Positions 21,984 through 49,197 of a DNA stretch of 64,000 nt are shown piece by piece. The stretch is from an uncultured Pseudomonadales bacterium. GTDB taxonomy: Bacteria > Patescibacteriota > Microgenomatia > UBA1400 > PJMF01. Position numbers and translations under genes: made by a program. Each line of letters begins with the position of its first letter. The stretch's first letter is position 1. The stretch lies in NCBI GenBank assembly GCA_964412775.1, contig CAYPPX010000003.1, positions 75,467 to 139,466 on the forward strand. The letters run 5' to 3'. The notes under the pieces are model-generated. The model saw nothing but the letters and a program-made list of their open reading frames with translations, was not told where the DNA came from and searched no databases.

Positions 21984-23819
21984 TTACATTTCCTCTGGTG
22001 TTTGCACACCCAGTAAACCCAAACCATATTCCAAAACATTAGCAGTTGCTTGAGTCAGAACAGTTCTTCTTTCTCTGGCATCAGAGTTTTCAGCATTAAT
22101 AATTTGGTGAGTATTATAAAAAGCATTAAAACGTTGAGCCAATTCAAAAAGGTAACCAGCTAAGTGATGAGGGGCAAACTCAGCGGCTGCTTTTTCTACT
22201 AACTCAACAAAACGATCTAAATGACGAGCTAAATTTAGCTCAACAGCATCTAATTTCCAAGAATCATCACCAAAAGCTGGTGAAAACTCTTCTAGAGCGG
22301 CTTTTCTCAACACACTTTTGGCTCTAACAGCCGCGTATTGAACATAAGGGCCGGAATTACCCTTCATACTGAGAATTTCATCCCAATCAAAAATAATATC
22401 GCGACTGGTTTCACTTTTGAGATCATTCCATTTCAAAGCACCAATGGCCACAGCATCGGTAGAACTCATTAATGAAGAAGGTCTTAATGTTTTTGGTCTA
22501 TTTGATGATCTAGAAATTACTTCTGTGTCTTTAAACTCTAAAGTATGTTTTGACATTAAACGAGCTCGTTTTTTGGCTTCATCAATTACATCTTCCAACC
22601 AAATCACATTACCTTTTCTAGTCGACATTTTTTTGTCTTTAAAGCGGTATAAACCATGTTTTACATGAACTCTTTGGCCTGGTTGATACCAACCCATGAT
22701 TTGTTCGACGGCATAGATCTGTTGAAAATATAAAGCTTGTTCAGCACCGACTTCATTCACAATTAAGTCTGGTTTTTCTTTTTTCAACCTATAGTAATCA
22801 GTGGCAAAATCTCGAGTGGAATACAAAGTAGCGCCATCTTGCTTCAACACCATTAGTGGCGGATATTGATCATTTTCAAAGAAAATTAATTTTGCACCAT
22901 TTTCACCTTCAGCACAATGAGCTCCATTAGTTACTGCATCCTCTGGAGTAAGCTTAGACTCTAGCAATTTAACTACTTCAGTCATTTTATCTTCAAAAAA
23001 TGACTCACCGTAACCTCGACCATTATTTTCTGAAAAAGATACTCCTAATTCACCATAAATTTGTTGAAATTCTTGCCAAGATAAATCAATACACCATTGC
23101 CATAATGCTTTGGCTTCTGGATCACCTTCTTCTAGTTTTTTAAACCAAGCTCGACCAGCATTTTCAATTTCTGGTTCTTTTTCAGCCTCATCATGAAATT
23201 TAACATATAGTTGAACTAACTCTTTAATTGGTCGGTCTGACTTTGCAATTTCTGCTTGTTTACCCCAAGTTTTAATTGCATAGATTAATTTACCGAATTG
23301 AGTACCCCAATCACCAAGATGGTTATCTCTCAAAACCTGCCAACCAATCGCTTCATAAAGATTAGCGATCGCATCACCAATAATTGTCGAACGTAAATGA
23401 CCCACCGTAAACGGCTTAGCAATGTTGGGTGAAGAATACTCAACGATTACTTTCTTGGCTTTATTTTTTGTGGTTAATTCTTTAAATAAAGCTTGAGGTT
23501 TAGTTTCAGCTAGTTTAATTGTCTGGGTGCGAAAATATTCATGAGCCAATTTAAAGTTAATAAAACCTGGTCCAGCAATCTCAATCTGCCAAACTTCAGG
23601 CAATTCAGCTAAATTACTTTTCAATTCACTAACAATCTTTTCGGCTAGGGCTCGAGGATTATTAAAACCTTCAATTTGCTTGCAATATTGTAAAGCAACA
23701 TTAGTGCTCCAATCACCATGATTTTCATCGGCTGGATGTTCTAAGTTAACTCTGGGATTAGTAATCCCTAAGTTTATTAAAACAGCATTGATTTGTTGAT
23801 GTAATGAATTAACTAACAT
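21984..23819 (-). CDS. argS: Arginine--tRNA ligase
   Basis: N-terminal add-1 domain, class I HIGH-region equivalent (PNIAKPFTVGHLRST), DALR anticodon-binding domain at the C-terminus. Confidence 0.85.
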   Translation of the reverse strand: MLVNSLHQQINAVLINLGITNPRVNLEHPADENHGDWSTNVALQYCKQIEGFNNPRALAEKIVSELKSNLAELPEVWQIEIAGPGFINFKLAHEYFRTQTIKLAETKPQALFKELTTKNKAKKVIVEYSSPNIAKPFTVGHLRSTIIGDAIANLYEAIGWQVLRDNHLGDWGTQFGKLIYAIKTWGKQAEIAKSDRPIKELVQLYVKFHDEAEKEPEIENAGRAWFKKLEEGDPEAKALWQWCIDLSWQEFQQIYGELGVSFSENNGRGYGESFFEDKMTEVVKLLESKLTPEDAVTNGAHCAEGENGAKLIFFENDQYPPLMVLKQDGATLYSTRDFATDYYRLKKEKPDLIVNEVGAEQALYFQQIYAVEQIMGWYQPGQRVHVKHGLYRFKDKKMSTRKGNVIWLEDVIDEAKKRARLMSKHTLEFKDTEVISRSSNRPKTLRPSSLMSSTDAVAIGALKWNDLKSETSRDIIFDWDEILSMKGNSGPYVQYAAVRAKSVLRKAALEEFSPAFGDDSWKLDAVELNLARHLDRFVELVEKAAAEFAPHHLAGYLFELAQRFNAFYNTHQIINAENSDARERRTVLTQATANVLEYGLGLLGVQTPEEM

Positions 23820-24046: not shown

Positions 24047-25111
24047 TTATTCAGCAGTCAACCACATGGCCAGCGGTGGCTTGAAACCAGCAGGAGCAAA
24101 CCTTTGGTCGCCAATCCAGATACGGGCAAAGTTGCTAGCTCCACCCTTTTCATTGTCCAGATAGAGCTGACTGGATGGTTTACCCTGCAGGGTTTGGCGG
24201 CTGAACATCAGTTCCAAGTAGGCATTCGCCATACTTACTGCCCAAGCCTCTTTTTCGGTGGCATTACTGCCACGAAGAGAAGTGTAGACATACCCAGAGC
24301 CATTGACCATGCCTGCGGGACAAACCTCGGCGAAGTTAAATTTCTGCCCGGGGTTAACGAACACCTGGAACACACTGCGTTGGTCCTTGATACCGGGGTA
24401 CTCAGGCTTGCCCTTTTCACAGGTAATCATGAATGAAGCAAATTGCGCTTCATCCAGCCAGATAACATCAGGCTGGGTCTCGGCCTTTTCTGCCTCCAGG
24501 ATCATGCCTTTGAGGGAGACGAATGTCGACTGGTACCAATCTGCATTGGCAGTAACATCAGTCCAGGTTCCTAGTGGGGCTGTGTAGTAGCTCCATCCTT
24601 CAGGCAAGCCGCGCTTAACCATTCCAGGCAACATTCCGCTGATTTCCAATGGTGAGTAATACAGCGAATCATTGGGAAATAAATCCGCTGCCGCTGCAAA
24701 AGCGTCGCCACGGTCATCACCAGGCTTCAACTGCACCAAAGTCAATTTGTTGTCCTCGCTAATAGCTGGGGCTTCCAGCTGGTAGTTTGGCGCAACAATG
24801 ACTGTTTTTCCCCCAGCATTCAGTAGCGTCCAGGCATTATAGGGGCCCAAGACGTCATTGAAGTTGTAGGTATTGATGGCGCTGGTTGGAGTTGCTGATG
24901 GAGTTCCAGTTGGCAAATCAGTCGCTGTCAAAGCGACCACCGTCCCCTGTTCCGTTCTGGTGGGTAACGGTGTTGCCACATCTGGCGTTGAAGTAGGCTC
25001 TGGCGTATTGGTAGCCAGACTTGGGGTCTGAGCGCCAAGTTGACAGCCACTCAGACAAACCAGCAACAAAATCGTGATGAAGATGCTGGTTTTGGGGTAG
25101 TTTGTGAACAT
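24047..25111 (-). CDS. Secreted lipoprotein with Pro/Thr-rich linker; compositionally foreign (GC about 50 %)
   Basis: Signal peptide with lipobox LSGC, then TPEPTSTPDVATPLPT...TGTPSATPTS linker. GC is sharply higher than its flanks. Confidence 0.6.
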   Translation of the reverse strand: MFTNYPKTSIFITILLLVCLSGCQLGAQTPSLATNTPEPTSTPDVATPLPTRTEQGTVVALTATDLPTGTPSATPTSAINTYNFNDVLGPYNAWTLLNAGGKTVIVAPNYQLEAPAISEDNKLTLVQLKPGDDRGDAFAAAADLFPNDSLYYSPLEISGMLPGMVKRGLPEGWSYYTAPLGTWTDVTANADWYQSTFVSLKGMILEAEKAETQPDVIWLDEAQFASFMITCEKGKPEYPGIKDQRSVFQVFVNPGQKFNFAEVCPAGMVNGSGYVYTSLRGSNATEKEAWAVSMANAYLELMFSRQTLQGKPSSQLYLDNEKGGASNFARIWIGDQRFAPAGFKPPLAMWLTAE

Positions 25112-25346
25112 AGTTCACCTCTTTCTCCAAAGTTTGAGTCATGAACAAGTCCTGCCCATGCCAGCCACCCTTTGGGAGTGACTAGCTTGGCAAGACTTGA
25201 CTATTTCTCGTCTTGTTAAAGAACTTCACTTGCCCCAAATTAGAACCGCAAAAAAAGAAGGCTCCACTTGAGTAAGTGAAACCTCCATTATATCGCGTCC
25301 TTATAACTTTTTCAACTGGACTATATTTTATAAACTATTTCAATAA

Positions 25347-25640
25347 TTATTCTTTAATAATTTGTTCATCTGGATGAATAACAAATTCTTTCATCATGGC
25401 AGCAATAATACTTAATAATACTGCCATATCGCTTTCAATAGTTTTATCTTCTTTTAATGGAATTAATTCTTCTCTCAGAAAAAAATTGCTTAAACAAACA
25501 ATCATTCCCGGATCATCTAAATCTTCAACTCGATCAACTATGGCCATGAGTGATTCATATTGAGCACTCAGCCCTTTTTCTTTCATGACTCCAGCTAATT
25601 TTTCAGCTGCGGCTCTTAATCCTTGTTCGCTTCCAGGCAT
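25347..25640 (-). CDS. Small acidic hypothetical protein (97 aa)
   Basis: ORF in the same operon as the three upstream small ORFs. No recognisable motif. Confidence 0.4.
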   Translation of the reverse strand: MPGSEQGLRAAAEKLAGVMKEKGLSAQYESLMAIVDRVEDLDDPGMIVCLSNFFLREELIPLKEDKTIESDMAVLLSIIAAMMKEFVIHPDEQIIKE

Positions 25641-25725
25641 AAACGCTCTTTCTCGGCAGGTTAATATTGAGTAATTATACCCCCAAACACAAAATGTTGT
25701 ATATTTTTGAAAAAATTTATAAAAA

Positions 25726-25989
25726 TCAGGTTGTTTCAGCCTGTTTAAGCTTATTTGCCAATTCAGCCATTAAGTCAGCATAAGTATCAGCGTCTATCTC
25801 TTGTAGAACGATAGTCACTTCAGCAATTTCCAAAAAACTGATAAATTCTTGCAAAGAATAAACATTTTCATTGTAGTCAAGCCACCATAAAAAAGTTGTC
25901 AAACTATCAGCCAAATGACGATCAAGTAGTTCTGCAACTAACTTTTCTGTTTTTAATCTTAAACTAGTCTTTTCTCTTGGTTCAATCAT
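25726..25989 (-). CDS. Small acidic hypothetical protein (87 aa)
   Basis: ORF in tandem with the other small acidic ORFs. No recognisable motif. Confidence 0.4.
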   Translation of the reverse strand: MIEPREKTSLRLKTEKLVAELLDRHLADSLTTFLWWLDYNENVYSLQEFISFLEIAEVTIVLQEIDADTYADLMAELANKLKQAETT

Positions 25990-25991
25990 GA

Positions 25992-26408
25992 TTATTTTTT
26001 GGCTGTTGATGTTTCTTCTGCTAAAACATCAGCAACTAATTGTGCAAAAAGCTTATAAGTTTCTTCTAAATTAGCTTTAGCTATTTCATCTTTAACTACA
26101 TCCATTTCAAGCGTAATTTGCAGAACCTGATATAAACGATGGGCAAAATCATAAGAAGCTTTGGTCATTAAACCTTCTAGACAAGTTAAAATCTCGGTCG
26201 ATTCCCTTGTTTTTCCAGCTTTGGCTAAAGCCTCAACTACCGGCACTAACTTAATAGAAACAACCTCTAATTCTTTACTAACTTCTTCTGGAATTCGACC
26301 ATTAATCAGTTCTAAATATAGCATTAAGGTTTCAACACTCTTAAAAATTCCCAAATCACTAAGTAAACTTTCATAACCATCCTTCAAAAGCTGAAGCATG
26401 GCATGCAT
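25992..26408 (-). CDS. Acidic helical hypothetical protein (138 aa)
   Basis: ORF in tandem with the other small acidic ORFs. Its ATG overlaps the stop codon of the unlisted upstream 53-aa ORF (TAAATG). Confidence 0.4.
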   Translation of the reverse strand: MHAMLQLLKDGYESLLSDLGIFKSVETLMLYLELINGRIPEEVSKELEVVSIKLVPVVEALAKAGKTRESTEILTCLEGLMTKASYDFAHRLYQVLQITLEMDVVKDEIAKANLEETYKLFAQLVADVLAEETSTAKK

Positions 26409-26568
26409 TTAGCTTAGAACTAGTTCATCAGTATCAGCAAATTCAACTTGCCAACGCAAGTATTCTGGATTTACTGGCACATCACTCCGACCATCTAAAA
26501 TTCTAGCAATTGATTGAGCTGCAATAATTGCATCTAGTTTAGTTGGTTTTTTATTAGCTTCTGTCATA
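26407..26568 (-). CDS. Unlisted 53-aa ORF (MTEANKKPTKLDAIIAAQSIARILDGRSDVPVNPEYLRWQVEFADTDELVLS), first gene of the small-protein operon
   Basis: Read directly from the reverse strand. Stop codon overlaps the ATG of 25992..26408. Confidence 0.3.
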
Positions 26569-26686
26569 AATTTATCTTCAAGCTTATCTATTGACTTAAT
26601 ATTATAAACATATATATTTTATACCATTTTAGATAAAATGCCAGTATATTTTAATACTATAGGATAATAATTATCAGGTCTTTAAT

Positions 26687-28336
26687 TTATTCTGTCACTT
26701 TAACCAACCAAGTTTCATTTGCAAAATTAGCCGTAATAGCTGGAGTTTTAGTCACTTCATTTAGAGTATTAATAAACTTAATGTTTTTAAATTCTAAAAA
26801 TTCAGCTTGATCTTTTTTAACTACTTGATTGGCGACCTGAACTTCTTCTGGGTCTGTCTTGGTATAAAACCAATAATACATTGCTGGCCTACCCTGTTCT
26901 CTCGTAATATAGACTGGTAAATCAGGATTATCACGCTGAAGTTTAGTTACTGCCTCAACCATTTGTTGATAACCCACTTGCCATTCATGATCATATAACT
27001 TGGGATAAACATTGAGCAAGTGTCTGTAAAATCCACTAAAAACCACTAAATACAAACCAATAAAAACAAAACCTAGTAAGTAGCTTCTTAAATTCCTTAT
27101 TTTTTCATTAAAACAAAAAAACTTACTTGCTAAAAATTCATAAACTTCATATAAACCATAAGTTAATAAAATTATAAAAGCTGGAGCTGTAGGTAAAATT
27201 CTCAAGGCATGAGGTACTGGCTGAGAAATAGCAGCCGGTAATATTCCAATAATTAACCACCATAAAATAAATAATTTTTTATCAAAAGAAAACTTCTTCA
27301 ATAATACCCATGAACCAACAATCAAGAATAGCACTTCAAATGGATAAAACAAACCAAAATATTGTGAGGAATGACGAGCAATAGCATCACCACTAATAAA
27401 CAAAAAATTAGTTGAAAAATGAGCAAAAAACTGGCTAATAATTAATTTAGCAAAAAACCAATAACGATGGAAAACCAATCTTGTCCACCAATCATTATGG
27501 TATAAACTTTGGAAATAATTACTTTCACTAATAATTTCTAAATTAGAAAAAATCGTGGTTTCAGCTATTCTTTGGCCAAGCACCGGTGAACCCAAAACCT
27601 TAATAAATGGCAACAATAAAAGTATTAAAATTGAAAATATAAAACCAATTTGAAAAAATAATGGTTTTAAAGTTTTGTTAATATTTAGATAGGTTATTAA
27701 ATACCTAAAACCTAAAAATAAACCCAACATTGGGCCAATTAGTCTGGCCGAGTGATAAATATATATTGATAAAACTAAAAAAATTACACTCCAAATAAGA
27801 CTTTTAAAATCATGGTATTTATTTTTTAAATCAAAACTTTTCCAACCAAAAGTCACACCCAATAAAATAAAAAAAGTAGCCAAGTTAACCTCCCAACCAG
27901 CTCTAGAAAATTGAATTAACCAGGGAGAAATGCTTGCCAGTAACATACCAATCAAAGAAAGTTTTTGTCTAGCTTTTTCAGGTAAATAATCAGTTAATAA
28001 ATAAATCAACCAACCCAGCACTAAAACAATTAAAGTCCCAGCAATTACCGAAGGCAATCTGACTGCTAAAACATTCAGACCAACTAATTTTATAAACGGC
28101 ACAATTGCATAAAAATACCCAGCTGGCTTCCAATCACCAAATGACTCAAAAGCCACTAATGGATACGAATTACCATGATGATCTTTACCAGTTTCTAAAA
28201 TTGAATAAGCATCATAACCTAGAGCCACCTCTTCCCAGTATGGAGCTGGTGGGGAACTAGTTACTTGATAAACACGAATAACCAAAGCCAAGGTTGTAAT
28301 CAAAATAATGCTAATAATAAATTTAAATTTTGACAT
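26687..28336 (-). CDS. GT-C fold glycosyltransferase, PMT/ArnT-like
   Basis: APYWEEVALGYDAYSIL acidic first-loop motif, polytopic. Confidence 0.6.
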   Translation of the reverse strand: MSKFKFIISIILITTLALVIRVYQVTSSPPAPYWEEVALGYDAYSILETGKDHHGNSYPLVAFESFGDWKPAGYFYAIVPFIKLVGLNVLAVRLPSVIAGTLIVLVLGWLIYLLTDYLPEKARQKLSLIGMLLASISPWLIQFSRAGWEVNLATFFILLGVTFGWKSFDLKNKYHDFKSLIWSVIFLVLSIYIYHSARLIGPMLGLFLGFRYLITYLNINKTLKPLFFQIGFIFSILILLLLPFIKVLGSPVLGQRIAETTIFSNLEIISESNYFQSLYHNDWWTRLVFHRYWFFAKLIISQFFAHFSTNFLFISGDAIARHSSQYFGLFYPFEVLFLIVGSWVLLKKFSFDKKLFILWWLIIGILPAAISQPVPHALRILPTAPAFIILLTYGLYEVYEFLASKFFCFNEKIRNLRSYLLGFVFIGLYLVVFSGFYRHLLNVYPKLYDHEWQVGYQQMVEAVTKLQRDNPDLPVYITREQGRPAMYYWFYTKTDPEEVQVANQVVKKDQAEFLEFKNIKFINTLNEVTKTPAITANFANETWLVKVTE

Positions 28337-47614: not shown

Positions 47615-48487
47615 ATGAAAACATTACTTACTACTGGATTAAATGGCTTAGTTGGTTCTAAGTTTGCTGAAGATTTTAAAAATAGTTATCAATTTGATAA
47701 CCTTGACTTACGTGATCCCAGTCAACCAACCGACATAACTAAATATGATCAGGTATTAGCTAAATTCCAACAGTCTGATGCCACTCACACAATTCATTTA
47801 GCTGCCTATACTGATGTCACTGGAGCTTGGCAACAAACTGACGATACTAATGGTATTGCCTATCAAGTTAATGTCATTGGAACTGAAAATGTTGTTAAAG
47901 CCGCTGAAGCAACTGGTAAACATTTAATCTATGTCTCCACAGCATATGTTTTTGATGGTGAGAAAAAAGAACACTACACTGAAACAGATAGTCCAAACCC
48001 AATTGAATGGTATGGTAAAACCAAGTTTTTAGCTGAAGAAATAGTCAAAAAAGCGCAATGTCCATGGACTATCTTGAGAATTGATCAACCTTTCCGTTCT
48101 GATGAGTTTGAAAAAGTTGATACAGCACATAGAATTATTAATGGTATCAAGGCTGGTTCTTTATATCCACAATTTACCAATCACTATTTTGGCCCAACCT
48201 TCGTTGATGACTTCGCTAAAGTATTAGACTTTACTGTGAGAACTAGCCCAACTGGTATTTACCATGCTTCCAGTGGTGAATCATGGACTGATTATGACTT
48301 CGCTGTTGCGATCAATGAAGCCCTTAATTTGGGAGCTGAGATTGGTAAAGGTGACTTAGAAGCATATTTGGCCAGTTCTGCTCGTCCATACCAAAGAAAT
48401 ACAGCCATGAGCAATCAAAAGCTCTTAGCCATCTTAGATTTTGAGCCAAAAACCATTAAACAAGCTTTAAGTGAAATAAAAATCTAA
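47615..48487 (+). CDS. rfbD: dTDP-4-dehydrorhamnose reductase-like
   Basis: RmlD-like substrate-binding domain: AAYTDVT...YVSTAYVFDG...YGKTK. Confidence 0.6.
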   Translation: MKTLLTTGLNGLVGSKFAEDFKNSYQFDNLDLRDPSQPTDITKYDQVLAKFQQSDATHTIHLAAYTDVTGAWQQTDDTNGIAYQVNVIGTENVVKAAEATGKHLIYVSTAYVFDGEKKEHYTETDSPNPIEWYGKTKFLAEEIVKKAQCPWTILRIDQPFRSDEFEKVDTAHRIINGIKAGSLYPQFTNHYFGPTFVDDFAKVLDFTVRTSPTGIYHASSGESWTDYDFAVAINEALNLGAEIGKGDLEAYLASSARPYQRNTAMSNQKLLAILDFEPKTIKQALSEIKI

Positions 48488-49137
48488 GTAGATTTTTTTC
48501 GATTGGTTTCTCTCCAAGCTACAATTTTTTTATGGTCACCTGTGAGTAAAACTTCTGGCACAGACCAATTTTTGTAAACTTCAGGCCGAGTATACTGAGG
48601 AAAACCTAATTGACCTGGTTGGTTGTGTGATTCGCCTTGATTACTAGCTTCATTACCCAACACACCAGGTAATAATCTAGCGACACTGTCAGCGATAACC
48701 ACGGCAGCTGGTTCACCGCCGGTCATTACATAATCACCAATTCTTAACTCTTCATCGATTAAGTAATCAGTAATTCGCTCATCTACCCCTTCATAATGGC
48801 CACAAATAATCGCCATTCGCTTCAACTGAGCAAAATTTTTAGCAGTTTCCTGAGTATAAACACCACCTTGAGCCGAAGTTAGAATAATTTTTTCATCAAC
48901 AGTCCCCTTTTTAAAACTATGTGCAGATAATGCCAAATCAATTGGCTCAACTTTCATCACCATACCTGGACCTCCACCATATGGTCGATCATCAGTAACT
49001 TTATGCTTATCAGTTGCAAAATCACGAATATTTACTACTTTAAGCAGTTGTTTTTCAGTATTGGCTTTTCCCAAAATAGAAGCCTCAAATGGACCTTTAA
49101 AAAATTCCGGGAATAAAGTAAAAATAACAATCTCCAT
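48484..49137 (-). CDS. trmD: tRNA (guanine37-N1)-methyltransferase
   Basis: IFTLFPEFF...DDRPYGGGPGMVM...SPOUT knot motifs. Start set at the internal Met that aligns with TrmD N-termini. Confidence 0.85.
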   Translation of the reverse strand: MEIVIFTLFPEFFKGPFEASILGKANTEKQLLKVVNIRDFATDKHKVTDDRPYGGGPGMVMKVEPIDLALSAHSFKKGTVDEKIILTSAQGGVYTQETAKNFAQLKRMAIICGHYEGVDERITDYLIDEELRIGDYVMTGGEPAAVVIADSVARLLPGVLGNEASNQGESHNQPGQLGFPQYTRPEVYKNWSVPEVLLTGDHKKIVAWRETNRKKST

Positions 49138-49197
49138 AATGCAATTATATAATGATATACTTGCCAAGTAAGATATAAATTTTTTAGGAAAAATATC

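Follow-up and report, generated by a model that had tools for sequence, protein, structure and literature searches.

Several described groups of small helical proteins resemble the acidic proteins A, B and C encoded at this locus of a 64-kb window (the whole stretch of DNA that was analysed). Class IIa-type bacteriocin immunity proteins such as PedB (2ip6) and LciA (8hfs_B) are likewise cytoplasmic four-helix bundles of about 90-110 aa, but the scanned ORFs here included no gene for a bacteriocin, man-PTS or ABC exporter, and no Pfam immunity match was obtained. WXG100/Esx proteins, at about 90-100 aa, are likewise acidic, helical and encoded by tandem genes, and protein B has a Trp pair; its motif, however, is LWW(x)E/D rather than W-x-G, C was modelled as a single-chain bundle rather than a hairpin, and the scanned window ORFs yielded neither an FtsK-type T7SS ATPase (EssC/EccC) nor a Pfam WXG100 match. 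Class I T3SS chaperones combine alpha and beta elements in their fold, whereas the models of A and C are all-alpha and the scanned window ORFs included no secretion-system genes. The only structural matches to the models of A and C were generic up-down four-helix bundles, namely designed bundles, single-chain ROP and the Avd/'S23 ribosomal protein' family (4dwl, 2rld, 2gsc), at 4-13% identity and with no sequence-profile match, a correspondence of fold class and not of family. Avd is basic and adjoins a reverse transcriptase in diversity-generating retroelements, whereas C is acidic (pI 4.5), has no Pfam match and has no reverse transcriptase among the Pfam-scanned ORFs of its window. Clade-restricted, Pfam-less families in CPR genomes are themselves well documented: the AGNOSTOS study assigned to Patescibacteria 54,343 lineage-specific unknown clusters (283,874 genes), most of them at the species or genus level (PMC9132574). 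A, B and C resemble those clusters in both respects, but for them the genomic slot, mosaic content, promoters and, for A and C, fold class are worked out here.

The window is an envelope-glycan island carrying GT2, GT4 and many GT-C (PMT_2, PTPS_related) genes together with two flippases, a LytR-CpsA-Psr protein, NDP-sugar enzymes and a DPM-synthase-like GT2; the island also encloses argS, trmD and two-component genes. The ORFs of interest sit between a lipoprotein gene of foreign composition (24047-25111, 51% GC) and a GT-C gene (26687-28336), in agreement with the initial annotation, which had placed them between an acquired lipoprotein gene and GT-C genes. That annotation described a four-gene operon of 53, 138, 87 and 97 aa. 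Four consecutive minus-strand ORFs do exist and the last three have those lengths, but the first ORF encodes 52 aa (26409-26567) and the end coordinate given, 26568, falls one base past its start codon. The features of the locus, in the direction of transcription, are as follows.

26601-26624, minus strand: conserved promoter-like block 5' of gene A, GTATAAAAT...TGTTTATAAT, from an upstream alignment of nine loci including distant ones
26409-26567, minus strand: 5' fragment of gene A, codons 1-52 (52 aa), ending at an in-frame TAA
26409-26411, minus strand: nonsense codon TAA within gene A, from the codon context in four sequences
25992-26408, minus strand: 3' fragment of gene A, codons 54-191 (138 aa), whose starting Met abuts the TAA and which carries the confidently modelled four-helix bundle (residues ~94-184 of intact A)
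25726-25989, minus strand: gene B, 87 aa, pI 4.38, fast-evolving, with a conserved LWW motif
25674-25703, minus strand: gene C promoter TATACA-18-TATAAT, with the -10 TATAAT at 25679-25674
25641-25673, minus strand: gene C 5' leader TTAATATTAACCTGCCRAGAAAGRGCGTTT, 33 nt, with a Shine-Dalgarno-like AAGAAAGG, from an alignment of relatives
25347-25640, minus strand: gene C, 97 aa, pI 4.51, a compact helical bundle in its model
25287-25315, minus strand: conserved promoter TTGAAA-17-TATAAT of the lipoprotein gene, downstream of gene C
25250-25286, minus strand: terminator-like 13-bp hairpin followed by U7, from per-sequence folding

The ORFs of 52 and 138 aa share one reading frame and are contiguous, so that 25992-26567 translates as ...DELVLS*MHAMLQ..., interrupted by one stop only. 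Used as a query, the 138-aa ORF found homologous proteins of 191 and 187 aa that extend over the 52-aa ORF as well, and gene A relatives elsewhere are single proteins of 187-198 aa. At the position of the window's TAA the closest relative, the Candidatus Pacebacteria MAG GCA_020849455.1 (L006; 95.5% DNA identity here, 92.7% further downstream), has TCA (Ser), while L005 and L002 have TCT; in all three the gene reads through this position as one gene of 191 or 187 aa. Codon 53 is a three-way difference between the window, L005 and L006, the two closest relatives covering the codon (about 95-96% nucleotide identity), in both of which gene A is intact. A fourth sequence, L004, likewise has a sense codon at this site, but carries a separate frameshift in a poly-A run near its 5' end. 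The N-terminal fragment retains the family-conserved motifs AA..NI...L and P(V/I)NPEY(L/I)R. By this alignment the two ORFs are one gene A of ~190 aa, interrupted by a TCA>TAA nonsense change (a single C>A), and the four genes annotated initially become three. The TAA was seen in one assembly, the only other contig of the same strain (L001, 100% identical) starting one base past it. Reassignment of the stop codon was rejected because gene A's own terminator and other genes of the locus also use TAA.

Polarisation of the gene A substitutions with L005 and L006 assigned to the window lineage 6 nonsynonymous changes plus the nonsense change vs 5 synonymous, compared with 1 nonsynonymous vs 11 synonymous in the L005 and L006 lineages together (Fisher p = 0.027). 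The pattern fits a relaxation of constraint in the window lineage after, or around, the disruption. The window's copy of gene A may be decaying, or it may yield two separate products, translation possibly re-initiating at the ATG that abuts the stop.

The stop/start overlaps (TAAATG) described initially held for the first junction only, which is not a gene boundary. Gene B starts 2 nt after the gene A stop (TAAtcATG), and wherever both genes occur the start of B lies 2-13 nt past the end of A; genes B and C are separated by an 85-nt intergenic gap. Upstream of gene A, promoter-like scan matches extend over 26616-26698 in addition to the aligned block listed above. The gap before gene C contains the conserved promoter and leader, which runs counter to the single operon described initially: the -10 element is kept in 6/7 aligned loci, and the leader hardly differs between lineages that have diverged to a coding dS of about 1. 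Downstream of gene C the hairpin begins directly after the -10 of the lipoprotein gene promoter. All five of the loci with the lipoprotein gene keep this promoter-hairpin element, and loci lacking the gene lack it too, the hairpin having been destroyed by a deletion in L002 and being absent in L011. Genes A and B are probably co-transcribed as a bicistron, and we infer that the hairpin ends the gene C transcript. Transcripts initiated at the embedded lipoprotein promoter would lack the 5' arm of the hairpin and would therefore read on into the lipoprotein gene. Under this arrangement the promoter of A would drive A-B and that of C would drive C up to the terminator, with the lipoprotein gene as the next module, and the three genes would form two transcription units at the least, or three.

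As the initial annotation had indicated, all of the products are acidic, with pI values of 4.56 (52-aa ORF), 4.81 (138-aa ORF), 4.38 (B) and 4.51 (C), whereas most other window ORFs have values of ~9. The nucleotide composition of genes A, B and C (GC 0.34, GC3 0.19-0.25) is native, like that of their neighbours. Their highest 19-residue hydropathy was 1.3-1.6, from which no membrane segment is predicted, and with no signal peptide either the three proteins are predicted to be cytoplasmic. None displays conserved catalytic-looking residues, although the N-terminal half of A, in which PxNPEYxR is strongly conserved, may hold an unrecognised activity. Family members of B are ~80-87 aa long and share the motif LWW[LTVA][DE], with the conserved Trp pair near the middle of the protein.

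Selection was assessed by pairwise Nei-Gojobori estimates of dN/dS against orthologues, which are kept across lineages at dS 0.8-1.8. Values were 0.13-0.29 for gene A, 0.09-0.39 for gene C and 0.39-0.77 for gene B, and on this evidence A, B and C are real, selected coding genes. Comparison with L002 set these rates against those of neighbouring genes: dN/dS and amino acid identity were 0.07 and 92% for ArgRS, 0.06-0.08 and 89-96% for three other glycosyltransferase genes, and 0.137 and 78% for the adjacent GT-C (549 aa), compared with 0.136 and 81% for gene A, 0.26 and 68% for gene C, and 0.48 and 38% for gene B. With 38% identity to its L002 orthologue vs 78-96% in five neighbouring genes, gene B is, by this measure, strikingly fast-evolving.

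The description of the products as helical stood for A and C, which are all-alpha in AlphaFold models; B has no Gly, a single Pro and 54% helix-forming residues. The model of an intact A protein (P0001), built from a shallow alignment, had a mean pLDDT of 64.5, its N-terminal half being helical but of low confidence and its C-terminal part forming four long helices at ~94-184 with pLDDT 85-91 over ~101-180. C was modelled as a compact all-alpha four-helix bundle with pLDDT 81.4.

Searches bore out the earlier statement that the proteins match no recognised family. For the window proteins and their diverged orthologues, Pfam, NCBIfam and PADLOC gave nothing below E of about 0.01 and no match that recurred across members; PHROGs gave no match better than E = 0.03; searches of PDB by sequence and by profile, from the small as well as the enlarged alignments, returned no significant match; and clear homology to housekeeping proteins was not found. 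The 2.9 million contigs of IMG/VR contained no relative of A, B or C, and a BFVD fold search with the C model returned no match at E<1. The initial annotation had also suggested a check for mutual similarity, as in a paralog array, and hhalign comparisons between A, B and C, run at both alignment sizes, yielded probabilities of only 0.1-0.7%, which contradicts that suggestion. The family alignments are shallow (3-7 sequences), and A, B and C appear to be undescribed families in the libraries searched, to which very remote homology is possible.

The Pfam scan covered 37 window proteins, including 30 larger ORFs; about half of the ORFs of at least 100 aa were scanned directly, and the unscanned segments at ~7.8-21 kb and 30-36 kb have, for most of their length, Pfam-annotated glycosyltransferase counterparts in relatives. 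Neither the scanned window ORFs nor the genes called in syntenic loci included toxin, secretion-system, recombinase or phage genes, or Rhs, LXG, CDI, bacteriocin or mobile-element genes, and no integrase, repeat or tRNA was found at the slot. The linked toxin or secretion genes that might have accompanied immunity proteins or secretion chaperones, two of the roles proposed initially, were thus not seen in either set, which consisted almost entirely of glycan-synthesis or housekeeping genes.

All loci with sufficient flanking sequence have the same architecture, in which a GT-C gene (~550 aa) is followed by the slot and then by argS, inside a long glycosyltransferase array. L006, for example, has an intact 191-aa gene, then genes of 87, 97 and 354 aa, then argS. 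The content of the slot varied, while its order was invariably A, then B, then C. The arrangement A-B-C-lipoprotein was found in the window and L006; D-A-B-C plus a lipoprotein remnant in L002, where D is an ORF of 116-118 aa on the opposite strand; A-C in L004; B-C-lipoprotein in L007-9 and L025; C-lipoprotein in L023; C only in L011 and L012; D-A only in L013; A-B in L014-16 and L017; and, in L018/19, A and B with a 38-aa remnant of a second A copy between them. Gene C was present in most of the relatives sampled and starts ~35 nt past the GT-C stop codon in L011 and L023. Decay was recurrent, comprising the nonsense change in the window, the frameshift in L004, the A remnant in L018 and a ~960-bp deletion of the lipoprotein gene in L002. 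The lipoprotein (354 aa) has no recognisable domain, and its gene is absent from some loci that keep gene C. Where present, this gene of foreign composition always follows C.

With an HMMER profile, an exhaustive search through 1.84 billion protein representatives recovered seven clusters for gene A, six of them true; the seventh, P0009, was a spurious low-complexity repeat protein. Gene C was found at two loci among 185,579 species-representative genomes, and gene B at three metagenome loci, two of which were already among the known loci. Neither the genome scan with C nor the metagenome scan with B revealed a context for A, B or C outside the slot. A literature search on Pacebacteria with glycosyltransferase found no paper. 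The three families appear to be restricted to a narrow group of Pacebacteria-like CPR bacteria, and the interval between GT-C and argS behaves as a gene-turnover slot in which relatives gain and lose A, B and C freely.

Taking together what was observed (the structure of the genes, the selection on them, their distribution, the fold class of A and C and the lack of known relatives), we favour, with moderate confidence, the reading that A, B and C are three unrelated, dispensable, clade-specific acidic proteins that bind rather than catalyse, housed in a gene-turnover slot and with a helical-bundle fold modelled for A and C. The fold class, together with the absence of catalytic motifs, suggests a binding role, in which the proteins would act stoichiometrically, as adaptor- or inhibitor-type binding proteins and not as enzymes, and they would be dispensable for the surrounding glycan machinery. 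As to the nature of the partner, a role in conflict or specific to a niche, as an immunity-like protein or an inhibitor, is a tentative possibility on the unlikely side, and modulation of the neighbouring envelope-glycan machinery is less likely still, the remainder falling to something else. An origin as spurious ORFs in AT-rich intergenic DNA might be suspected from their short length and their lack of a database family match, but it had already been refuted by the dN/dS values, which lie well below 1 for orthologues conserved at dS 0.8-1.8; the conserved promoters and leaders and the confident cores of the A and C models also oppose it, and its probability is practically negligible. Cargo of a phage or other mobile element, such as anti-defence proteins or DNA mimics, is very improbable. 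Small size and strong acidity are usual among DNA mimics and anti-restriction proteins, and the slot is variable, but the negative searches of PHROGs (E<0.03), IMG/VR (2.9 million contigs) and, for the C model, BFVD (E<1) largely refute a phage origin, including the phage-derived module proposed initially; the native composition of the genes and the absence of an integrase, repeat or tRNA at the slot likewise oppose it.

The genes might instead encode cytoplasmic accessory or regulatory subunits of envelope-glycan assembly, for example adaptors for GT-C enzymes or flippases. They are co-oriented within the same glycosyltransferase island in every locus with known flanks, and C lies close behind the GT-C stop codon in L011 and L023, as noted above. 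This co-location, however, is inherited synteny within one clade, in which argS and trmD share the array, and is therefore not independent evidence for a glycan role. Moreover, conserved promoters of their own precede A and C, the three proteins contain no glycan-related motif, and relatives with the same glycosyltransferase complement lack differing subsets of A, B and C, so that the machinery works without them; we regard the glycan-subunit proposal as unlikely. Slightly less likely still, in our estimate, is that A, B and C are orphan immunity or antitoxin-like proteins directed against toxins encoded elsewhere in the same genome or by competitors, the slot being a small immunity island. 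The mosaic presence and absence of the genes, their decay and the paralog remnant, the evolution of gene B at a rate much above that of its neighbours, and the uptake by the slot of a gene of foreign composition all speak for such a role. It is weakened because no toxin or secretion gene was found in the scanned ORFs or syntenic loci, where Rhs, LXG, CDI, bacteriocin, recombinase and mobile-element genes were also lacking; there was, in addition, no PADLOC or Pfam immunity-family match, the fold matches were generic, the locus and gene order are fixed where flanks are known, and gene A is as constrained as the adjacent GT-C (dN/dS 0.136 vs 0.137). A more specific version, which we consider distinctly improbable, is that the slot is a vertically maintained conflict island of this Pacebacteria clade, with A, B and C as three new toxin- or effector-neutralising families that have no linked toxin and the lipoprotein as an exported effector or a target; if true, genes for conflict with other bacteria or with a host would be glimpsed for the first time in these CPR bacteria.

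On the reading that we favour, of dispensable binding proteins in a turnover slot, the finding is real but fairly ordinary, with the commonest helical fold and no system-level feature, and the three small orphan families add to a Patescibacteria catalogue that already lists lineage-specific unknowns by the tens of thousands (PMC9132574). The gain for annotation is a corrected model of the locus, with three genes, of which A is split here by a nonsense codon, and with two or three transcription units. Should the proteins prove to be of the immunity type or to regulate glycan assembly, they would represent families new to such a role in CPR bacteria. The close relatives, which have the same flanks and differing subsets of A, B, C and the lipoprotein gene, constitute a natural experiment whose comparison could reveal the function of these genes.

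The window (1-64000) is nearly all one envelope-glycan island, in which at least seven ORFs matched Pfam families of GT-C type, PMT_2 or PTPS_related, and similar-looking ORFs of ~550 aa adjoin these matches. Over approximately 36 kb (89-36298) the genes all run along the minus strand, and two genes of other types are embedded in the island:

Window 21984-23819, minus strand: argS
Window 48484-49167: trmD

From its first in-frame ATG the argS ORF of the window encodes 611 aa, compared with 587-588 aa as called in relatives, and the true start is probably a later ATG near 23750.

The slot between the GT-C gene and argS, which holds the small acidic genes A, B and C together with a lipoprotein gene, varied among the related loci (L numbers) in both gene content and the integrity of A. 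The variants affecting D and A were located as follows:

L002 9485-9835 and L013 366-722, minus strand: gene D, between the GT-C gene and A
L018 8599-8715: 38-aa ORF between A and B, the N-terminal remnant of a second A paralog resembling family member P0006
L004 ~185-215: frameshift in the A orthologue, within the poly-A stretch of codons 5-7

Gene D (116-118 aa, on the opposite strand) was present in these two relatives and had no counterpart in the window; no Pfam match was found for it, and it is a further orphan gene. The P0006-like remnant in L018 shows that A was formerly duplicated or replaced in the slot. Because of the frameshift in L004, only a 131-aa ORF (P0003) was called for the A orthologue of that locus; either A was disrupted independently a second time, or the frameshift is a homopolymer error of a contig with low coverage. 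L001 (Logan SRR5011273_261537), the only other contig from the window's strain, starts at window 26408, exactly one base past the TAA codon that splits A, and a C/A polymorphism at the variant site in that population could be why the contig breaks so close by. Locus L012 (CAYSQA010000003.1) carries the label 'uncultured Pseudomonadales bacterium', but its gene arrangement (GT2, GT-C, GT-C, C) is that of the Patescibacteria MAG L011 and the C proteins of the two are nearly identical; L012 was probably mis-binned or mislabelled.

Downstream of A and B, the following features were compared across loci:

Window 25250-25315, minus strand: TTGAAA-17-TATAAT promoter with a 13-bp hairpin and U7 immediately after it, between C and the lipoprotein gene
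Window 24047-25111, minus strand: lipoprotein gene (354 aa) of foreign-like base composition
L006 1912-2976, L023 8001-9068 and L025 802-1821: lipoprotein orthologues, in positions matching the window's
L002 11180-11230: deletion junction, versus window 25268 and 24309

The promoter-hairpin element, which matched no Rfam family, was kept in all five loci retaining the lipoprotein gene, with some stem bases changed. Transcription of C probably ends at the hairpin, whose 5' arm would be absent from transcripts begun at the embedded promoter. In L002 a loss of ~960 bp, from the hairpin interior to codon ~268, reduced the lipoprotein gene to a 60-aa ORF remnant, with TCAA(G)TGG microhomology at the junction.

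The lipoprotein family is rare (three clusters), and no Pfam domain was found in it. The window's gene has a GC of 0.51 and a GC3 of 0.55, against GC3 values of 0.19-0.25 in neighbouring genes, and the orthologues of diverged relatives, only 57-63% identical and in equivalent position, kept a high GC (0.47-0.54; GC3 0.45-0.65). The gene was therefore acquired before the clade diverged and has undergone no amelioration since.
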